DNA of 64,000 nucleotides from an uncultured Candidatus Hydrogenedens sp. (GTDB lineage Bacteria > Desulfobacterota_D > UBA1144), in the NCBI GenBank assembly GCA_902609885.1, contig CACLTT010000003.1, positions 8,809-72,808 of the forward strand, in the 5' to 3' direction. Positions 2,586 to 63,994 of the stretch are shown piece by piece. A model generated the notes under the pieces. The model was not told the DNA's origin, made no database searches, and was given only the letters and a program-made list of their open reading frames with translations. A program made the position numbers and the translations under genes. Each line of letters begins with the position of its first letter. The first letter of the stretch is position 1.

Positions 2586-2966
2586 TTATAAAGTAATTAC
2601 TTGATCGGGTGGGTTACCAGAAAGTGCTGTATATAGCTGCGGGAAACAACCAACGTGTACTCCATTTACAACATCTTTGGGTTTAACTTCGCCGGTTCCA
2701 CACTGACTGAATTCTCCTTCGGCAAGATTACGTCTTAAAGCACATTGGTCACATGCCATTAAAAGAATATTTTTTTCCTCTGCAATTTTAGCTAGACGCT
2801 CCCCTACTGGATCGCCCTTTCTTAAAGAAAAAACATTATCGTCAAAAAAGAACATTCCTACTACTTCAACAATATGACTATCAGCCTCAAGTTGTGGTAA
2901 TATCATTGACGATAATTTATAAGTTGCTGCCATATCGTTGGCAAAAACATAAGCTATTTTTATGAT
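2586..2966 (-). CDS. DsrE/DsrF (YchN/TusD-like) sulfur-relay family protein; start codon uncertain (possible AUC/AUA)
   Basis: Conserved Cys in LLMACDQCA. The conserved N-terminal strand IIIKIAYVFAN is encoded in frame upstream of the first ATG (2933). There is no ATG/GTG/TTG between the in-frame stop at 2979-2981 and 2933. Confidence 0.5.
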   Translation of the reverse strand: MIKIAYVFANDMAATYKLSSMILPQLEADSHIVEVVGMFFFDDNVFSLRKGDPVGERLAKIAEEKNILLMACDQCALRRNLAEGEFSQCGTGEVKPKDVVNGVHVGCFPQLYTALSGNPPDQVITL

Positions 2967-12762: not shown

Positions 12763-14157
12763 ATGGGATTAACAGCAGATAAGACTTTTTATCCTACTGC
12801 AAAAATGGCTATGGAAGCCCCAGCAGAAGAATTAGCATACGTAGCAACATTAAATGTTCACGGAAAACCTGATTCATTATGTACGGTTGATGTAAATCCA
12901 AATTCACCAGATTATCAAAAAACTGTGAGTGAATTAGTCTTACCGAATATAGGTGATGAACTTCATCATTTTGGATGGAACGCGTGTAGTGCACACTTGT
13001 GCCCTTATGCACCCCACCCTGATGTAGAAAGGAGATATTTATTAATTCCTGGATTACGTTCTTCAAGATTATATATAGTTGATACTAAAGATAATCCTAA
13101 AGAGCCAAAAATTATTAAAACAATTGAGCCAGAAGAAATAATGGAAAAAACTGGATACAGCAGGCCACACACAATACATTGTGGACCTGAAGGAATTTAT
13201 GTAAGTGCCCTTGGTGGAGGAAGTGAAAGTGGTGAAGGCCCTGGTGGAATTTTCTTAATTGATCATTTAACACTTGATGTTAAAGGACAGTGGGAAAATG
13301 ATCGTGGACCTCAATATTATGCCTATGATTTTTGGTGGCATTTAGGACATGACAGAGTTGTTACTTCTGAATGGGCAACACCAGACTTATTTGAAAACGG
13401 ATTAAACTTAGAGGCTGCAGTTGGTGGTAAATATGGTCATAAACTTCACGTTTGGGATCTTAAAACACACAATCACCTTCAAGAGCTTGATCTAGGAAAA
13501 GAAAATCAAATGGTTTTAGAATTAAGACCATCAAAAAATCCAAAAAATACCTACGGATTTGTAGGAGTTGTTGTTAATACTCAAGACTTATCAGCATCTA
13601 TTTGGACCTGGTATCTTGATAAAGGAGAATGGAAAATTCAAAAAACTATCACAATACCTGCGCAACCAGCTGCGGCTGAGGAACTTCCTGCTCCACTAAA
13701 ACAATTTGGTGCAGCTCCTCCACTAATAACAGATATTAATTTATCCCTAGATGATAAATTTCTATACGTTTCATGTTGGGGTACAGGTGAGATTATCCAG
13801 TATGATGTATCAGATCCTTTCAATCCTAAACAAACTGGGTTGATTGAAATTGGTGGAGTCGCAAAGAAAAAAGCACATCCATCCGGTGCTGCTGCATCTG
13901 GCGGACCACAAATGGTTGAACTTAGTAGAGACGGGAAAAGATTATATTTTACAAACTCTCTATATAGTAGCTGGGACGATCAATTCTATGATGATATCAA
14001 GGGTTGGTTTGTAAAAGCTGATATCGATCTTAATGGTGGATTTGAAATAGATAAAGATTTCTTTATGGATTTTGGTGACCAAAGAACTCACCAAGTTAGA
14101 TTACAAGGCGGAGATTCTTCATCTGATTCATTTTGTTTCCCTAATGAAGAAAACTAA
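12763..14157 (+). CDS. selenium-binding protein SBP56 family (methanethiol oxidase homolog)
   Basis: Full-length match to SELENBP1/MtoX landmarks: TVDVNPNSPDY, DELHHFGWN, GGPQMVELSRDGKRLY, C-terminal GGDSSSD. No signal peptide. Confidence 0.9.
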   Translation: MGLTADKTFYPTAKMAMEAPAEELAYVATLNVHGKPDSLCTVDVNPNSPDYQKTVSELVLPNIGDELHHFGWNACSAHLCPYAPHPDVERRYLLIPGLRSSRLYIVDTKDNPKEPKIIKTIEPEEIMEKTGYSRPHTIHCGPEGIYVSALGGGSESGEGPGGIFLIDHLTLDVKGQWENDRGPQYYAYDFWWHLGHDRVVTSEWATPDLFENGLNLEAAVGGKYGHKLHVWDLKTHNHLQELDLGKENQMVLELRPSKNPKNTYGFVGVVVNTQDLSASIWTWYLDKGEWKIQKTITIPAQPAAAEELPAPLKQFGAAPPLITDINLSLDDKFLYVSCWGTGEIIQYDVSDPFNPKQTGLIEIGGVAKKKAHPSGAAASGGPQMVELSRDGKRLYFTNSLYSSWDDQFYDDIKGWFVKADIDLNGGFEIDKDFFMDFGDQRTHQVRLQGGDSSSDSFCFPNEEN

Positions 14158-14166
14158 TTTCTTCAA

Positions 14167-14769
14167 ATGGACCACATACACTATAGCTTCTTTATAATTT
14201 TAGGCTTTTATCATGGAGTCAACCCGGGAATGGGTTGGCTCTTTAGTGTTGCTCTGTCAATGCAAAGAGAATCAACAAAAACTATTTTTATAAGTCATAT
14301 ACCTATAGCTATAGGACATCTACTATCTCTTATAGTTACAATTTTAGTATATTACGTTATTCAAGACTTTATAACACCCGAAACAAGTAAATTGTTTTTT
14401 GCATTATTATTAATTGGTTTTGGTATTTACAAATTGATTGACCGAAGTCATTTTAATTGGGTAAAAATGAACGTTAATAATTTTGATCTATTTATATGGT
14501 CATTTTTAATGGCTTCTTCTCATGGTGCAGGACTAATGTTAATACCAGGTTTTAATTATGAAGGAGATCACATGGTTCATCATTTAGAACATTTTGGTTT
14601 TTTTGCATTAGGAATCCATACATTAGCAATGCTTATAACATCAATTATTATAGCTTTTTTAGTTTATAAATTAATTGGTCTTAGAATTTTAAGAACAAGC
14701 TGGATAAACTTTGATTATATTTGGTCTTTTGTATTGATACTTGGTGGATTATTCATCTTTTTTATTTAA
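14167..14769 (+). CDS. polytopic membrane protein (possible HupE/UreJ-like metal transporter)
   Basis: Six TM segments; internally repeated GFYHGVNPGMGW / SHGAGLMLIPGF motifs. Confidence 0.3.
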   Translation: MDHIHYSFFIILGFYHGVNPGMGWLFSVALSMQRESTKTIFISHIPIAIGHLLSLIVTILVYYVIQDFITPETSKLFFALLLIGFGIYKLIDRSHFNWVKMNVNNFDLFIWSFLMASSHGAGLMLIPGFNYEGDHMVHHLEHFGFFALGIHTLAMLITSIIIAFLVYKLIGLRILRTSWINFDYIWSFVLILGGLFIFFI

Positions 14770-56101: not shown

Positions 56102-59100
56102 CTAATTATCTAAATTATTCTGTAAAATACTTTTTAGTTTTTTTATACTTATATTTGAGTTCTCAGCATAATGTTTAAATTGATCATCGTTTATTTTGCC
56201 CACGCTAAAATATTTAGCATCAAGATTATAAAAATACAACCCTGAAATAGAAGAAGGGGGATAAATCGCATAGTTCTCTGTGAGACTAACATTCAATTTA
56301 TTCTCTACATCTAGTAATTTCCAAATCTTATCTTTTTCGGAATGATCAGGGCATGCAGGATATCCATGTGCTGGTCTTATTCCTGCATATTTTTCTTTTA
56401 TAAGATCATCATTAGAATAATCCTCATTTGATCCATTATCTTTTCTCATTTTTTCATGAAGTAATTCTGCAGATGCCTCAGCAAGTCTATCAGCTAGAGC
56501 TTTAATAAGAATAGAAGAATAATCATCTCCTGACTTTTCAAATTTACTAGCAAAATCCTCAATTTCTTGACCTGCTGTCACAACAAATGCTCCTATAACA
56601 TCCTCTGAATTTAAATTTGGTGAAATAAAGTCTGAAAGGGAGTAATATATTTCTTTTAGTTTACTTTTTTTAACCTGCTGTCTTAGAAAATTAAATTCTT
56701 CGACCTTCTTTGCTGTATTATAATCAACTAAGATTACAGATTCATCTTGACTATGAGCCCTCCAATTCTGAGACAATCCCCTAATATTAATATTTTTTTC
56801 CTTTGATAAAATATCCAGCATTTTATTAGCATCATCAAATAGTTCTTTGACTTGCTTAGAATATCTTGGAGATTTTAATAATTTTGGAAAATTACCTTTT
56901 ATCTCCCATGCCCAAAAAAAAGGTGACCAATCAATATATCCTCTTAAAGAATTTATATCGAATGTCCATTCATTCACATTAAAGTTTTTTGTCATATTGA
57001 GGATATTCTTTTCATTTAATTTAAATTTCTTAGACCTGGCCTCTTCGATATCCACAAAATTTATTTTTTTTGAATTTTTATACCTTTTAATTGTTGATGC
57101 TTGATCATCTTTTAAATTATCAATATATTTATGAGAGGTTTTTTCATTAAGTAGTTCCCTACAAACACCAACAACCAATGATGCATCAGGAACGTGAACT
57201 ACTACTCCTTTCTCATAATTTGGTGCCATTTTTATCGCCGTATGTGCCTTACTAGTAGTGGCTCCACCTATCAAAACTGGAAGATTGTAGCCGTCTGAAT
57301 TTAATTTATCTAAATTACTTATCATTTCATCTAAAGATGGAGTTATTAACCCACTCATACCAACAACATCTGGCTTAAAATCATTAATATTTTCAAGAAT
57401 AGTATCATAATTAACCATCACTCCTAGGTCTCTAACATCAAATCCATTACAACGTGCAACAACAGATACAATATTTTTACCTATATCATGAACGTCACCT
57501 TTAACAGTTGCGATTAACATCTTACCAGCCGAGGTACCCTTAACTTTATCTTTTTCCATAAAAGGCTCGAGATAATTCACGGCCTTCTTCATAACTCTTG
57601 CACTTTTAACAACTTGAGGAAGAAACATTTTTCCTTCTCCGAAAAGGTCTCCAACATACTTCATACCATCCATCAGAGGTCCTTCAATAATTTCTAATGG
57701 CGAGTCATATAAACCTCTAGCTTCTTCTACGTCCTCTTCAATATTAGTTGTAATACCTTTTATTATTTGATGGGAAATTCTATCCTTCAAATCCAATGAC
57801 TTCCAATCTTCAGCTTTCTTGATTCCATTTGAACTGGATCCCACCGAACTTGCAAACTCAATTAAGTTTTCTGTGGCAGATTCCTCTCTGTCGAAAATCA
57901 CATCTTCTATTAATTTAAGAAGTTTTTCATCTATTTCTTCATAGACTTCAAGCATTCCTGCATTAAGAATAGCCATATCTAGTCCCGCTTTTTTTGCATG
58001 ATATAAAAATGCTGAATGCATGGCCTCTCTTACTTTATTATTACCTCTAAATGCAAACGATAAATTACTAATTCCACCGCTCACCATCGCACCCGGACAT
58101 AATTCTTTAATTTTTGGAATGCTTTCTAAAAAATTAATTGCATATTTCTTATGCTCTTCAATGCCAGTTGCAATAGTTAATATGTTTGGATCAAAAATAA
58201 TTTCTGTTGAATTAAAATGGAGCTTATTGATTAGTAGGTCATAAGCTCTTTTACAAATATTAACTTTTGATTCAATTTCTGTTGCTTGACCACTTTCATC
58301 AAAGGCCATAACAACCACTGATGCTCCATATTTCTGTATTATTTTGGCTTGTTTGAGAAACTCTTCTTCACCCTCTTTTAGACTAATAGAATTAACGATA
58401 CCTCTACCTTGAATACATTTTAATCCAGATTCGATGACGCTAAATTTTGAACTGTCTATCATCAATGGAACTTTAATTATGTCAGGATCTGAAGCAATCA
58501 AATTTAAAAATTTTTGCATGCATTTCTCACCGTCCAACATACCTTCATCAAAATTAATATCAATAATATGAGCTCCATTTTGAACCTGTTGCTTAGCTAT
58601 TTCCATTGCTTCCTCATAATTTTCATCTTTAATTAACTTAGAGAATTTTGGAGAACCTGTAATATTAGTCCTTTCCCCTATTACAAAAAAATTATTTACA
58701 TTATTAAGCTCTAGAGGCTCAAGACCACTAAACGAAGGAAGCAACTTTCTAGGAGCTAAACTGATAGGCTTAAAATTTTTTAAAACTTTAGAAATTTCAA
58801 AGATATGATCAGGAGTAGTACCACAGCACCCACCAACAAAATCTAAAATATTACTCTCAAAATATGGAGTTAAAGCTTTTGCGGTATCCTCGGGTAATTC
58901 ATCATAACCTGTATCTGATAAAGGATTTGGCAGTCCAGCATTTGGATAACAAAGCACTTTACAATTTGCATAATTTTTCAGTTCTTTAACGTATCCTATT
59001 AAAGATTCGGCACCAAGACCACAGTTCATGCCAACTGAGTAAGGATTTGAATGCCTTATTGATTCCCAGAAAGCCCTAATAGTTTGGCCAGACAAGGTTC

Positions 59101-59779
59101 TTCCAGACTTATCAGAAAAAGTTACTGAAATAAATACTGGGGATCTCTCACCAACCTCTTCAAACAGATTTTCTAAGGAGAATAAAGCAGCTTTAAGATT
59201 TAATGTATCAAAAGTTGTTTCTGGAAGAAATATATCAACACCGCCGTCTAACAAACTTTTTGCTTGAAGATAATATGCATTTACAAGTTCGTCAAAAGTT
59301 ACATTCCTTTTTCCTGGATCTTCGACATCTGGAGAAATTGAGGCAGTTCTATTAGTTGGTCCCATAGCTCCGGCAATAAAAATCTTTGATTTATCAATAT
59401 CATCATTTGACTCATCTATAGCTTGTTTTACAACTTTTACTGATTCTATATTCATTTTCTCAACAAGGTGTTCTAATTTATAGTCGGATTGGGCTATTGA
59501 TGTTGCTCCAAAAGTATTTGTTTCTATAATTTTAGATCCCGAGTTAATATAAGATTTATGAATTTCTTTAATAATATTAGGACATGTAATATTTAGTATT
59601 TCATTATTACCCTTTAAATCTAAGATATGATTTTTTAGCAAATCTCCTCTATAGTCTTCTTCCTGTAATTTATATTTTTGAACCATGGTGCCCAAGGGGC
59701 CATCCATTAGCATAATTTCATTTTTACATAAAGTATCAAGCTCATTAAAAATTTTTGATTTTTTCATTTCTATTACCAC
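56102..59779 (-). CDS. metH: cobalamin-dependent methionine synthase
   Basis: 1225 aa; B12-binding GDVHDIGKN; Hcy/pterin/activation domains collinear. Confidence 0.95.
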
Positions 59780-60579
59780 TCATCTCTCATATCTCTCAGC
59801 AATTTAAACCTTTCTTCCATATTCAAATCACTAAATTTGTCTGATGTCTTAAGCAAATCTAAAAAAGAAAATTCATCAATCCTAAAAAAAGGATTATATT
59901 TTTTTTCGAATCCAATATCTTTGATTTCTGAAAGTTCATTACTTTTACAATCTAATAAAAAATTTTTTATATCCGATGCAAAATCATTATCATCAAAAAT
60001 TATTGAATCTAGAAATTTCAAATTATTTTCTAAATAATCGTGTCCTGGTAATAATTTTAGATTATCAGGCAGATTCTTCATTTTATGGTGAATTGTTCTA
60101 AATAGCATAGATGCATCTCCGCGAAACCTTACGTTACCTACTCCACATGCAAATATAGTGTCTCCACAAAATACATAATTATTTACTATAAAAGATATAT
60201 GTTCAGGGCAATGTCCCGGTGTATGTAAAACCTTAATTCTTAAATCTCCAATTTTAACAATATCATTCTCAAATATGTTATCAAATTCTTGCGTGAATAA
60301 ATCTTTACAAATGTTATGTGCATTTAATTTTATTTTATATTTATCCATAAAATATGAGTTATATGCAATATGGTCGGGGTGTGCGTGCGTATTTAAAACT
60401 AGTTTGGGATTCAAATCATTATTGATTATAATTTTATCTATAAAATCTTTATCTAGAGGGTCAATTATTACACAATCTCTAGTTCTAGCGCATTCTATTA
60501 TATAGTTAATATTTCTATCACTATTCTCGACTAGAAATCTATAAATATTCAGATCTTTTTCTTCTATTTTTTCAAACAT
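59773..60579 (-). CDS. MBL-fold hydrolase (glyoxalase II-like)
   Basis: THAHPDH (HxHxDH) motif. Confidence 0.7.
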
Positions 60580-60649
60580 AAATCTATTATACCTTTCATA
60601 ATTAAATCTTTTTGTTGTTTTTTTCTTATTAATTTATTATAATTCTCAA

Positions 60650-60705
60650 GGTCGTCATTTAACTCTACTTGCAACGACTTTAAATAAATGCTAAACGGAG
60701 AAAAG
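60650..60705 (+). ncRNA. candidate SAM-II/SAM-V-like riboswitch leader
   Basis: ...CUUGCAACGACUUUAAAUAAAUGCUAAACGGAG resembles the SAM-II core (UUGCAAG...AUAAAUGUAGCUAAAAAGG). P1 GUCGU/ACGAC; loop CAUUUA can pair with the downstream UAAAUG (H-type pseudoknot). Confidence 0.4.
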
Positions 60706-60758
60706 GTTTTTATTCAAAATCTTTCCTCTTCGAGTTACATGATTATTAGGAGTATCGT

Positions 60759-61988
60759 ATGTCTTTTGTAACTTGTTTAAAATGTAAAGATTGTAGTCCC
60801 GCTTGTGAATTTGATAAACAAGCCTTATATGTTTGTGATGATTGCTTTGGACCTCTTGAGCCAAGTTACGATTATGACAAGATTAAAAAAGAATTAACAA
60901 TAGATAAAATTTCAAAAAGGTCAAAGAATATGTGGAGATATAAAGAATTATTACCTTTAGATAATGAACCAACTGTAGGACTTAATACTGGCTATACTCC
61001 ACTTATCAAAGCAAATAATCTTGCAAGAATTCTAGGTGTAAAAAACTTATACATTAAAAATGATGGAGTCAATTTTCCATCCCTATCTTTCAAAGATAGA
61101 GTTGTTGCAGTAGCTCTTTCTAAAGCTGTAGAGCTTGGATATGATACAGTTGGTTGCGCATCAACTGGTAATTTAGCAAATTCTGTTGCTGCACAATCCG
61201 CGGCAGCCAACCTTAATAGCTTCATATTTATCCCATCAAATCTTGAAGAGGCTAAAATTCTTGGGACATCTATATATGGGAAAAATGTTATAGGTGTCAA
61301 AGGGAGCTATGATGATGTTAATAGATTATGTACAGAAGTTATTGGTTCTAATAAATGGGGCTTTGTAAATATAAATCTCAGAACTTATTATGCAGAAGGT
61401 TCTAAAACTGTTGGGTACGAAATTATAGAACAACTTGGATGGAAGGCTCCTAAAAATATTGTTGTATGTATGGCTTCTGGATCTTTATTAACTAAGATAT
61501 ATAAATCAGTTAGAGAATTGGTTGATTTAGGCTTGGTTGACGATAATAATACAAAAATTTATGGTGCTCAAGCATCAGGATGCTCACCAATATCCACAGC
61601 TGTAAAAAATGGATGGGAATCATTTAAACCGGTCAAACCTGATACAATTGCAAAATCCTTAGCAATTGGCAATCCTGCCGATGGTATAAATGCAATAAAC
61701 TTGTTAAATGATATAAATTCTTACTCTGAAGATGTTTCAGATGAGGAAATTGTAAATGCGATGAAATTATTGGCAGAAACTGAGGGAATATTTACAGAAA
61801 CTGCTGGTGGAGTGACATTAGGTTGTACAATTAAAATGCTAGAAAATGGAAAAATTAATAAAAATGAAGATTTAGTTTTGGTTATAACTGGTAATGGTTT
61901 AAAAACTCAAGATCCATTGATAAATAAAATAAAAAAACCGGATATAATTAACGCAAAATTAGAGGAATTTAATGAAATTAAATATTAA
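60759..61988 (+). CDS. threonine-synthase-family PLP enzyme with N-terminal 4-Cys zinc ribbon (ThrC or MetM-like homocysteine synthase)
   Basis: CLKCKDC...CDDC ribbon. PLP Lys region SFKDR. Fold-type II landmarks. Confidence 0.8.
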   Translation: MSFVTCLKCKDCSPACEFDKQALYVCDDCFGPLEPSYDYDKIKKELTIDKISKRSKNMWRYKELLPLDNEPTVGLNTGYTPLIKANNLARILGVKNLYIKNDGVNFPSLSFKDRVVAVALSKAVELGYDTVGCASTGNLANSVAAQSAAANLNSFIFIPSNLEEAKILGTSIYGKNVIGVKGSYDDVNRLCTEVIGSNKWGFVNINLRTYYAEGSKTVGYEIIEQLGWKAPKNIVVCMASGSLLTKIYKSVRELVDLGLVDDNNTKIYGAQASGCSPISTAVKNGWESFKPVKPDTIAKSLAIGNPADGINAINLLNDINSYSEDVSDEEIVNAMKLLAETEGIFTETAGGVTLGCTIKMLENGKINKNEDLVLVITGNGLKTQDPLINKIKKPDIINAKLEEFNEIKY

Positions 61989-62000
61989 GGAGAATAAATT

Positions 62001-62273
62001 ATGGCTTTAGTCAGAATACCAACACCATTAAGAAGGCTAACTAATGAAAAAGATGAGGTTAATTCGGAAGCAAAAACTGTAATCGAACTAATAGATGATT
62101 TAGATAATCAGTTTCCAGGGATGAAAAATAAAGTTTGCGAACCTAATGGATCAATAAGAAAATTTATTAATATATATATTAATGATGAAGACATTAGATT
62201 TCTTGAAGGTCCAGAATCCACAATTAAGCAAGATGATACTGTTTCAATTATCCCTGCAATTGCTGGTGGATAA
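62001..62273 (+). CDS. CysO/MoaD-type sulfur-carrier protein (C-terminal Gly-Gly)
   Basis: 90 aa ending AIAGG. Matches the CysO pattern IPT.LR...NIY.NDEDIRF...D.V.I.PA.AGG. Confidence 0.8.
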   Translation: MALVRIPTPLRRLTNEKDEVNSEAKTVIELIDDLDNQFPGMKNKVCEPNGSIRKFINIYINDEDIRFLEGPESTIKQDDTVSIIPAIAGG

Positions 62274-62274
62274 A

Positions 62275-63318
62275 TTATTCAAAAAATTCTTTAACTTTAT
62301 TGATATATTCTGAAAATGGATTCTTAGAGTCCTTTTCAACCTCAACTTGATATTCTTCAAGTAATTTTTTTTGTTTGCTATTAACTGTCTTAGGTATAAC
62401 AATATTTAGTTTTACATAAAGATCACCATAAGATTCTCTATTTAGAATTTTAATACCCTTGCCTTTTAGCCTCATTAACTGGCCAGGCTGAACACCTGCA
62501 GGAATTTTTAAATCTGAAGTTCCCTCTAAAGTTGGTATTTCAATTCTTCCACCTAAAACCGCATTAGAAATACTGACTGGCACCTCACAAAGTATATTCT
62601 CATCTTCTCTTTTAAAAAAAGGATGATCTTCAACAGTAATATCTATATATAAATCTCCATTTGGTCCATTGTTTATACCTGCATCACCCTCACCTGACAT
62701 TCTTAATCTTGTACCGTTATCAACACCTGCTGGAATTTTTACTTCTAATTTCTTATTCTCGGTATCATCTGCGAAAGCACCTGCTCCACCACAAGAACCG
62801 CAGGTTCTACTGACTGAGAACATACCTTGTGAATAATTAAGCTCACCGGTTCCGTTGCATGCTTTACATACTTTATATGTCCTCGCTCTTCTTAACGAAA
62901 TATTTTTTTTAATTCCTTTAACAGCTTCATCAAAAGATATGGATACATCAAATCTAAGATCTCGACCCTTGTACTGAGAATTTTCTCTTCTTGATCTTCT
63001 AGAATTAGATCTTCCGCCACCAAAAAAATCGTTTATAAGATCATCTAAATCTGGAAAACCACCAGGGAAACCACTTGAGAAGCCTCCACCACCAGCTCCT
63101 GGATTGACTGTCCCAAAAGTATCATATTGTGATTTTTTTTCTTGGTCACCTAAAACTTGATAAGCCTCATTAATTTCTTTAAATTTTTCTTCAGCTTTTT
63201 TATCATTTTTATTTCTATCCGGGTGATATTTAAGTGCTAATTTTTTATAAGCTTTTTTAATTTGCTCTTCATTTGATGTTCTATCAATACCTAAAACTGA
63301 ATAATAATCTTTACTCAT
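62275..63318 (-). CDS. dnaJ: chaperone DnaJ
   Basis: J-domain HPD, G/F region, CxxCxGxG repeats. Confidence 0.9.
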   Translation of the reverse strand: MSKDYYSVLGIDRTSNEEQIKKAYKKLALKYHPDRNKNDKKAEEKFKEINEAYQVLGDQEKKSQYDTFGTVNPGAGGGGFSSGFPGGFPDLDDLINDFFGGGRSNSRRSRRENSQYKGRDLRFDVSISFDEAVKGIKKNISLRRARTYKVCKACNGTGELNYSQGMFSVSRTCGSCGGAGAFADDTENKKLEVKIPAGVDNGTRLRMSGEGDAGINNGPNGDLYIDITVEDHPFFKREDENILCEVPVSISNAVLGGRIEIPTLEGTSDLKIPAGVQPGQLMRLKGKGIKILNRESYGDLYVKLNIVIPKTVNSKQKKLLEEYQVEVEKDSKNPFSEYINKVKEFFE

Positions 63319-63994
63319 TATCAGCTCCGGAGGATACAATAACTAAAGATGGTCTTAAAAGTTTATCGTCCAAACTATAACCAGTCTGAATAACCTCTAA
63401 TATTTTATTTGAATCAAATTTCTTCGATTTTTTAAGCTCTAAAGCTTGATGGAAGTTTGGGTCAAAATCGTCCCCCGTATTTATATTGATTTTTTCTATG
63501 TTATTTTTTTCTAAAAAGTTTTGAAAATCTTTTTCTACACTTTTCATCCCTTTGAAAAAATCAGTATCTCTTTGCGAGTCCTCATATAGGTTAAGACCTC
63601 TTTCAAAATTATCAATAAAAAATAAGAGATCTCTTAACATATTTTCTTTAGCAACATATATAGCTTGTTTTTTTTCAATTAAATTTCTTTTTTTATAGTT
63701 TTCAAATTCAGCAGCTAATCTTAATAATTTTTCATTTAATTCTTTTTTTGCAGCCTCTAAATCATCTTTTAACTTTAAAAAAGCTTCGGTATCCTCATCA
63801 TTTACAATTATAAGAAAATTAGTAAATTTATCGGTATCATTAAATTTAAAGGCAATTTCATTTTTACTACTAGATACAGTAATATACTCAGAACCTTCGA
63901 TAAAACTTTTAAAGTCGATAAAGGATTTAAAAACTGATTTATTTTCTTCTTTTTTGCTGTTTTCTTTTTGTTCTAAAGTATTATTTTCACTCAT
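63311..63994 (-). CDS. grpE: nucleotide exchange factor GrpE
   Basis: Coiled-coil followed by a beta domain with GrpE signatures. Confidence 0.85.
   Translation of the reverse strand: MSENNTLEQKENSKKEENKSVFKSFIDFKSFIEGSEYITVSSSKNEIAFKFNDTDKFTNFLIIVNDEDTEAFLKLKDDLEAAKKELNEKLLRLAAEFENYKKRNLIEKKQAIYVAKENMLRDLLFFIDNFERGLNLYEDSQRDTDFFKGMKSVEKDFQNFLEKNNIEKININTGDDFDPNFHQALELKKSKKFDSNKILEVIQTGYSLDDKLLRPSLVIVSSGADNE

Follow-up and report, generated by a model that had tools for sequence, protein, structure and literature searches.

What do two adjacent genes, one resembling threonine synthase (ThrC) and the other a CysO-type sulfur carrier, make together, and does the RNA leader in front of them respond to S-adenosylmethionine (SAM)? 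The question is raised by a locus in GenBank assembly GCA_902609885.1 (contig CACLTT010000003.1, positions 8,809-72,808, forward strand), a stretch of 64,000 nt with a G+C content of 29% that was analyzed as a whole and is called the window below. Here, we describe this locus as what is probably an operon of two genes for methionine biosynthesis, of the MetM/MetO type and controlled by a SAM-II-class riboswitch. The system itself is already known, having been first described in 2024, and the module in the window is most likely a member of it that is equipped with a divergent SAM-II-type riboswitch scoring below the Rfam threshold. The two plus-strand open reading frames (ORFs), with lengths in amino acids (aa), are separated by an intergenic gap of 12 nt:

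60759-61988, plus strand: MetM-like gene encoding a ThrC-fold pyridoxal 5'-phosphate (PLP) enzyme of 409 aa (ORF reading, Pfam and TIGR profiles, structure model)
62001-62273, plus strand: MetO/CysO-like gene encoding a sulfur carrier of 90 aa with a free C-terminal Gly-Gly (ORF reading, Pfam, structure-database alignments)

In the characterized system, as Hasebe 2024 (Appl Environ Microbiol 90:e01247-24) is summarized in PMC12172450 and the GapMind 2026 preprint, Streptomyces albulus MetM converts O-phosphohomoserine to homocysteine with thiocarboxylated MetO, MoeZ and Mec being accessory, and the reported layout is a SAM riboswitch followed by the enzyme and carrier genes. The window locus resembles it in the order of a ThrC homolog and a ThiS/MoaD-type carrier gene, in the presumed SAM riboswitch upstream, in the database label "threonine synthase" and in the proposed chemistry, by which O-phosphohomoserine and the carrier thiocarboxylate would give homocysteine. 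It differs in that the riboswitch is SAM-II-like, whereas an actinomycete locus (L110) and loci of five other phyla carry SAM-I; in a carrier that ends in GG, with no C-terminal trimming needed; in that no Mec or MoeZ gene lies near the locus; and in its host, a streamlined marine Dadabacteria-like bacterium. In the proposed pathway, the Gly-Gly of the carrier would be adenylated and thiocarboxylated by a ThiF/MoeZ-type E1 encoded elsewhere, the ThrC-like enzyme would eliminate phosphate from O-phosphohomoserine and add the thiocarboxylate sulfur at C-gamma, and the resulting homocysteine would be methylated to methionine by the neighboring MetH.

The carrier exceeds the Pfam cutoff for ThiS (57.7 bits), terminates in ...IPAIAGG and aligns end to end with Amycolatopsis CysO (4n6e_B, E=1e-19) and with M. 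tuberculosis CysO (3dwg_C, E=5e-16), the same-family carrier of the CysM/CysO pair (PDB 3DWG); the terminus ...PA[IV]AGG is common to all three. Together with the ORF coordinates, these matches bear out the original prediction of a Gly-Gly protein of CysO type encoded 12 nt downstream of a ThrC-fold enzyme. Carriers ending directly in GG are found in the window and in the relatives L001, L003, and L004 (89-96% identity); L002 (91%) and the relatives at 74-76% identity have carriers with a GG-Ile end. Because the window carrier ends directly in GG, a trimming protease is dispensable for it. The tails in other phyla consist of GG plus 2-8 residues (variation seen in L002, L005, L006, and L008-L024). 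These carrier ends imply that a JAMM-type trimming protease would be needed in some lineages and not in that of the window.

CysM, the partner of CysO, is likewise a PLP fold-type II enzyme, for which the sulfur donor is a carrier thiocarboxylate and the substrate an O-phospho amino acid. It belongs, however, to the cysteine-synthase family and makes cysteine from O-phosphoserine, whereas the window enzyme is of the ThrC family and is predicted to be SAM-regulated. Homocysteine sulfur is reportedly drawn from a protein thiocarboxylate, as proposed here, also in the HcyS/HcyF/HcyD/MetY system of Wolinella succinogenes attributed to Krishnamoorthy and Begley in 2011, the enzyme of which is said to be an O-acetylhomoserine sulfhydrylase of PLP fold type I, not a ThrC-like enzyme.

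The ThrC-like enzyme matches Pfam PALP with 223 bits and scores under the cutoffs of the full-length models PRK08197 and PRK05638. With the four bacterial ThrCs of solved structure (2ZSJ, 6CGQ, 1UIM, 2D1F), it has in common the fold, the PLP lysine (K112 in SFKDR, aligned with the ThrC catalytic lysine), the phosphate loop ASTGN and, as proposed, the substrate O-phosphohomoserine. Unlike them, it carries an additional N-terminal domain, the solved ThrCs covering it from about residue 58 on. The four cysteines of the zinc ribbon foreseen there are kept across the clade (C9, C12, C26, and C29, CxxC-x13-CxxC), C6 and C16 vary, and the AlphaFold model (pLDDT 84.9, pTM 0.88) has three short strands in residues 4-37. 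A structure search with this model returned threonine synthases (target-normalised TM 0.87 for 2zsj) together with fold-type II enzymes at a greater distance; none of the matches was a solved MetM.

Identity to the four ThrCs is 33-37%, as against 56-62% within the enzyme's own clade, which is spread over many phyla and which is separate from the solved threonine synthases in an alignment with these four. The clade has an 8-residue insertion relative to ThrC and 22 invariant positions that differ from residues invariant in the four ThrCs; these positions cluster in active-site loops, which read SFKDRVV, ASTGNLxN, NxNxRxYYxEGSKT, AxGSL..K, GNPADG, and ETAGG in the clade versus SFKDRGM, ASTGNTxA, SVNPxRxEGQKT, GNAGN..A, GNPxSW, and EPAS, respectively, in ThrC. 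The B. subtilis ThrC is 33% identical to MetM, the same distance as that of the window enzyme to the ThrCs. All named homologs bear the database name "threonine synthase", and the GapMind 2026 preprint states that MetM is often misannotated in this way. A search of a plasmid collection yielded thrC genes of haloarchaea, 35-38% identical, and a single record of use, from an actinomycete. The product of 60759-61988 is, on these comparisons, a putative O-phosphohomoserine-dependent homocysteine synthase.

The company that the orthologs keep points in the same direction. At 11 orthologous loci in five other phyla, with enzymes 50-62% identical to that of the window, an above-threshold SAM-I riboswitch (RF00162, 69-98 bits; gathering score 44.4) lies directly upstream; the hosts are Brocadiales, other Planctomycetota, a Mariprofundaceae metagenome-assembled genome (MAG), Thermodesulfobacteriota, Terriglobia, Gemmataceae, and Nonomuraea. 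In about 50 of 80 loci, a carrier gene comes next after the enzyme gene. Among 86 same-strand neighbors at 27 diverse loci, ThiS (22), ThiF-type E1 (16), and PALP or cysteine-synthase-like genes (13) prevail, and TusA (3), sulfite-reductase domains (2), and rhodanese (2) are rarer. At the Nonomuraea locus (L110), SAM-I is followed by the enzyme, 50% identical to that of the window, and by a 91-aa carrier ending in ...AVAGG, which repeats the published S. albulus metM-metO layout. The role in methionine synthesis is assigned because of the SAM-I riboswitches upstream of orthologs, the sulfur-gene neighborhood and the divergence from ThrC; the same evidence upholds the original prediction of a MetM/MetO-type, homocysteine-making pair under SAM control.

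Several Nitrospinae loci (L013, L014, L016, L017, and L019) contain an apparent operon of a cysK-like gene, the thrC-like gene, the carrier gene, a ThiF-type E1 gene and a gene for a second PALP enzyme of about 340 aa. This arrangement suggests that one carrier may serve both cysteine and homocysteine synthesis there. No SAM riboswitch was found at L013, L014, or L016.

The leader of the window operon contains the following elements, on the plus strand:

60638-60643: likely -10 box TATAAT, with TTGTTT 17 nt upstream (read from the sequence)
60650-60700: SAM-II-like aptamer (full-length match to RF00521, our own covariance model R1, conservation)
60650-60655 with 60674-60679: aptamer helix P1, GGUCGU/ACGACU (GUCGU/ACGAC is also paired by the Rfam SAM-II model)
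60656-60663: aptamer loop L1, CAUUUAAC (its U residues map to the triplex strand of SAM-II)
60663-60670: presumed 5' strand of helix P2, CUCUACUU, then GCA (analogy with the SAM-II crystal structure)
60680-60692: presumed loop L3 (analogy with SAM-II)
60693-60700: presumed 3' strand of P2, AAACGGAG (analogy with the SAM-II crystal structure)

A scan of the window against Rfam at gathering thresholds gave zero matches. In a permissive scan, 60641-60714 matched RF00521 over its full length (model positions 1-79) with 25.0 bits, the gathering score being 36, and the only other family matched was the weaker RF01726 (SAM-II long loop, 23 bits). The leaders of six relatives match RF00521 and no other family, with 23.6-33.1 bits, and a canonical SAM-II recovered by the same pattern search scores 36.1 bits. 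The original prediction had left the class open between SAM-II and SAM-V; the likeness to SAM-II stood, at a sub-threshold score, and SAM-V was dropped, a search of the 501 nt surrounding the leader having given no match to RF01826 at E<=10. Our own model R1 found a single copy in the window, at 60645-60706. In relatives gathered by their protein and not by the RNA, identity to the window over the 50-nt aptamer is 92-98%, compared to 43-56% at the third codon positions of the gene, and the aptamer is conserved more than the downstream protein. A TATAAT-like box precedes GUCGU by 6-9 nt in all relatives, and transcription likely starts at about 60648-60650, right at the aptamer; a consensus promoter scan did not list the 60638 box, the -35 element of which is poor.

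The P1, L1 AUUU, CUUGCA, and GCUAAA cores of SAM-II are all present in the right order and spacing, P1 being the helix that had been proposed for the leader at the outset. The RNA thus resembles SAM-II (RF00521; 2QWY) in P1, in a U-rich L1, in both cores, in the predicted H-type pseudoknot with its purine-rich 3' strand and in its position in the 5' leader of a methionine gene, and departs from it in its score and in a loop shorter by 3 nt. In the SAM-II crystal structure, an AUUU stretch makes up the triplex strand of L1 and does not serve as a helix strand, and U20/U21/G22 sandwich the adenine of SAM (PMC3303485). On this description, UU-G at 60669-60671 maps to U20/U21/G22, U60692 and A60693/A60694 of GCUAAA map to U44/A45/A46, and the L1 AUUU maps to U10-12 (2QWY), so that every SAM-contacting element of SAM-II (L1 AUUU, UUG, and the U and AA of GCUAAA) has a counterpart in the leader. 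By analogy, the pseudoknot helix more likely consists of loop CUCUACUU and AAACGGAG, within which GGAG (60697-60700) is able to pair with CUCU of the loop (60663-60666) as helix P2a. The pseudoknot proposed originally, CAUUUA with UAAAUG, is complementary in the window and was rejected: in relatives, UAAAUG becomes UAAUUG, GAACUG, UACUUG, or UAACUG with no compensation, and the AUUU is the triplex strand. SAM-II is usually found in Proteobacteria and Bacteroidota, and the window leader lies outside that range.

Between the aptamer and the start codon lies what appears to be the expression platform, again on the plus strand:

60697-60729: relay hairpin, GGAG (60697-60700) with CUCU (60726-60729), upper stem AAAGGUUUU/AAAAUCUUU (RNAalifold, shuffles)
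60725-60738: conserved box CCUCUUCGAGUUAC, nearly invariant in 18 leaders
60748-60752: Shine-Dalgarno sequence (SD) AGGAG of the ThrC-like gene, 6 nt before the ATG at 60759 (read from the sequence)

The expected conserved tail of the aptamer, GCUAAACGGAG, is present, but its GGAG, 59 nt from the start codon, is not the ribosome-binding site of the gene, which is AGGAG at 60748-60752; an SD of the GGAG, AGG, or GAGAGGA type occupies the same position in all relatives. The hairpin that joins this GGAG to the downstream CUCU has 11 pairs in RNAalifold, 4 of them with compensatory changes; 96.6% of cells are paired, versus 56-71% with the partner slid, and none of 500 shuffles reaches the observed value. 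Its upper stem varies in sequence yet stays paired, and its lower stem, GGAG:CUCU, is invariant. The CCUCU of box CCUCUUCGAGUUAC is an anti-Shine-Dalgarno sequence. In unconstrained folds of 18 variants, the long hairpin forms in most, and the ribosome-binding site of the window is left unpaired; several relatives show partial pairing of this site or of the nucleotides leading up to the AUG. In folds that mimic the SAM-bound pseudoknot by making the aptamer through GGAG unavailable, all 18 variants pair CCUCU with the SD. GAGUUA (60732-60737) is complementary to UAACUC of the aptamer loop (60660-60665) and pairs with it in the unconstrained fold of the window, and may help to hold the aptamer open. 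A terminator scan found no terminator-like site in the leader, and transcription termination was rejected as the mechanism.

Given the covariation of the hairpin, the folds of the 18 variants and the absence of a terminator-like site, we therefore propose a strand-exchange relay, in which two CUCU and two GGAG segments compete and SAM would select between the middle pair and the two outer pairs. Without SAM, GGAG (60697-60700) would pair with CUCU (60726-60729), leaving AGGAG (60748-60752) free for translation. With SAM, an H-type pseudoknot would capture the same GGAG as P2a with CUCU (60663-60666), and the freed CCUCU would pair with the ribosome-binding site and turn translation off. The RNA elements are read directly from the leaders, and the switching logic is inferred from sequence and folding. 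In SAM-II of the usual kind, the purine-rich strand is the SD of the gene, unlike the window pseudoknot, whose GGAG would drive a relay hairpin hiding a remote SD. A parallel in placement is S. meliloti metA, where the SAM-II aptamer is likewise far upstream of the controlled start codon and where the SD inside the riboswitch is required for initiation 74 nt downstream (PMC9373788). If the window leader worked in that way, the aptamer GGAG would be a standby site that loads ribosomes starting 59 nt downstream, and the hairpin would be incidental. We consider this unlikely, given a good separate SD at a conserved position, a hairpin that covaries around an invariant GGAG:CUCU, and the anti-SD:SD pairing predicted for every variant.

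Several points weigh against a MetM/MetO operon controlled by SAM-II. The RF00521 match stays under the gathering score and has E=0.18 in a blind scan of the whole window (E=0.0014 when 501 nt are searched), and P1 and P2 are without covariation support because the aptamer columns are invariant; across the 18 leaders, covariation neither supports nor rejects the fold. Only the sixth P1 pair varies (G-U, U-A, A-U, and mismatches), and one P1 pair changes from U-A to A-U in the canonical L096. For the enzyme, the thrC equivalog TIGR00260 scores 271.8 bits against a cutoff of 167.1, and family hidden Markov models thus fail to split it from threonine synthase. The link to the characterized S. albulus MetM is indirect and runs via the Nonomuraea ortholog of 50% identity and the same layout. 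No E1, JAMM protease, homoserine kinase, or second thrC was found in the window or the examined parts of related contigs, so that the E1, protease and second thrC that the original prediction proposed to seek in the genome did not turn up in this sequence; ORF reading and tblastn over the same sequence found no cysteine synthase (CysK) either. Finally, a cyanobacterial homolog is reported to have weak threonine-synthase and threonine-deaminase activity and to bring no rise in methionine (PMC12172450); of the published findings, this one speaks most strongly against simply calling every member a MetM.

The sub-threshold score and the invariant aptamer, SAM binding being a prediction from sequence, leave some room for a different regulatory RNA, that is, one with another ligand, a protein-binding site or a stability element, whose likeness to SAM-II would have arisen by chance in AT-rich sequence. 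This is improbable: seven independent variants (the window and six relatives) match RF00521 over its full length, with RF01726 as the only other family, the scores grade up to that of canonical SAM-II, none of the ligand-contacting elements is lost, orthologs in other phyla are behind SAM-I, and relatives use this leader to control another sulfur-related gene as well.

The cyanobacterial activity and the lack of a second thrC in the examined sequence could also be accommodated by a bifunctional enzyme, the sole ThrC-family member of a genome of ~1.2 Mb, which would make threonine from O-phosphohomoserine with water and homocysteine with the carrier thiocarboxylate. The extreme streamlining of marine Dadabacteria (genomes of about 1.22 Mb) fits such economy, as does the formation of some threonine by the cyanobacterial homolog. 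Against it, a cell whose only threonine synthase is turned off by SAM would run short of threonine whenever methionine abounds, and the negative search for a second thrC covers 64 kb of the genome; we give this explanation little credence. That the enzyme is an ordinary threonine synthase of a zinc-ribbon subtype and the carrier serves a molybdopterin, thiamine or cysteine pathway, as the TIGR00260 score, the shared catalytic lysine and ASTGN loop, the uniform database names, the lack of a second thrC in the window and the weak ThrC activity of the cyanobacterial homolog (PMC12172450) might suggest, is very unlikely in view of 11 orthologous loci in five other phyla behind SAM riboswitches, controllers of methionine and SAM genes, of the tight and wide linkage to ThiS, ThiF, and cysteine-synthase genes, and of the low identity to validated ThrCs with 22 clade-specific substitutions in active-site loops, B. 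subtilis ThrC being just as distant from MetM.

The probable SAM-controlled MetM/MetO operon is flanked by two minus-strand gene pairs:

56102-59779, minus strand: metH (ORF list and profile)
59773-60579, minus strand: gloB-like gene, metallo-beta-lactamase fold (TIGR03413 149 bits, below the cutoff of 201)
62275-63339 and 63311-63994, minus strand: grpE/dnaJ pair (ORF list)

The metH gene is thus nearby, as had been noted, but does not adjoin the operon, being separated from the thrC-like gene by the gloB-like gene. Synteny comparison shows that the order metH, gloB-like, thrC-like, carrier, dnaJ, grpE is kept across the clade. The gloB-like gene overlaps the start of metH by 7 nt, and all clade members keep the two together, in divergent orientation to the thrC-like gene; dnaJ comes directly after grpE, with a 29-nt overlap and no dnaK in between, an arrangement that is also kept in the clade. 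The nearest genome records, at 96% identity, are Tara-type MAGs, and those at 74-76% are named "Candidatus Dadabacteria UBA1144" and, in one case, a "Thermodesulfobacteriota" MAG. Marine Dadabacteria have streamlined genomes of low G+C and, unlike their relatives on land, are reported to be without sulfate-reduction pathways.

Scanning metagenomes for the aptamer core gave 29 loci, 17 of which have the leader before a thrC-like gene. At five loci, with three distinct sequences among them, a Cys-rich mini-ORF of 22-28 aa with a run of 3-4 consecutive Cys codons follows the same aptamer and relay hairpin; its peptides are MLFISKDCSCFCLLNCCCCSFK and MVKTFSVYFSNTNTSCCNFSN[L/S]CCCNYR, and downstream of the mini-ORF a hairpin abuts the SD of an SBP56-family gene. 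Judged from its sequence, the mini-ORF looks like leader-peptide control by Cys codons stacked on the SAM riboswitch. Four pattern hits (six loci: L083/L094, L093/L106, L095, and L097) have no P1 and were treated as chance. The canonical SAM-II loci (L092 1774-1837; L096 2009-2084, minus strand) have the SD within the pseudoknot and, immediately after it, a 129-aa ORF without a Pfam match in its first 45 residues. The features concerned are:

L081 10976-11306; L084 6631-7365; L088 (minus strand, leader 2777-2919); L091; L109 4738-6394: aptamer, mini-ORF, and SBP56 loci in relatives
window 12763-14157, plus strand: SBP56 gene (Pfam 603 bits)
window 14167-14769, plus strand: gene for a 200-aa membrane protein with no Pfam match, after the SBP56 gene (ORF list, Pfam)

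The SBP56 gene of the window has neither a riboswitch-like leader nor a Cys-rich mini-ORF, and no second copy of the leader was found anywhere in the window, including before this gene, by regular expression, our own covariance model or Rfam. The SBP56 gene and that of the 200-aa membrane protein are also paired in L088 and L109.

SBP56 proteins are described in PMC5739008 as including a Cu-dependent methanethiol oxidase, and the link in relatives suggests that methanethiol-derived sulfide might feed the carrier pathway. Tentatively, and with more doubt than confidence, we offer the wider reading that the divergent SAM-II riboswitch and its GGAG/CUCU relay define a small SAM regulon that would couple sulfur capture to methionine synthesis in a clade reported to lack sulfate reduction: methanethiol derived from dimethylsulfoniopropionate would be oxidized to sulfide on demand, as sensed via SAM and Cys, and the sulfide would pass to the carrier and on to the MetM-like enzyme. 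If so, oligotrophic plankton would have a route of sulfur assimilation that has not been described before, and the methanethiol oxidase would be the first under the control of a riboswitch; the methanethiol-oxidase-family link suggests a testable idea for methionine supply in plankton that do not assimilate sulfate. The MetM/MetO assignment would correct a systematic misannotation, given the name borne by all named homologs, and would mean that the recently described synthesis of homocysteine from O-phosphohomoserine and a thiocarboxylate also occurs in a marine lineage that is abundant, uncultured and streamlined in its genome, as well as in at least five other phyla, in which SAM riboswitches mark it. 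A SAM-II-type aptamer below the Rfam threshold with an unusual relay platform should also be useful for improving the Rfam model.

Elsewhere in the window, a small protein encoded at 2586-2933 (minus strand) has a weak DsrE/DsrF-like match (21.2 bits, just under the Pfam cutoff), and its gene adjoins a zinc-uptake-like gene cluster.

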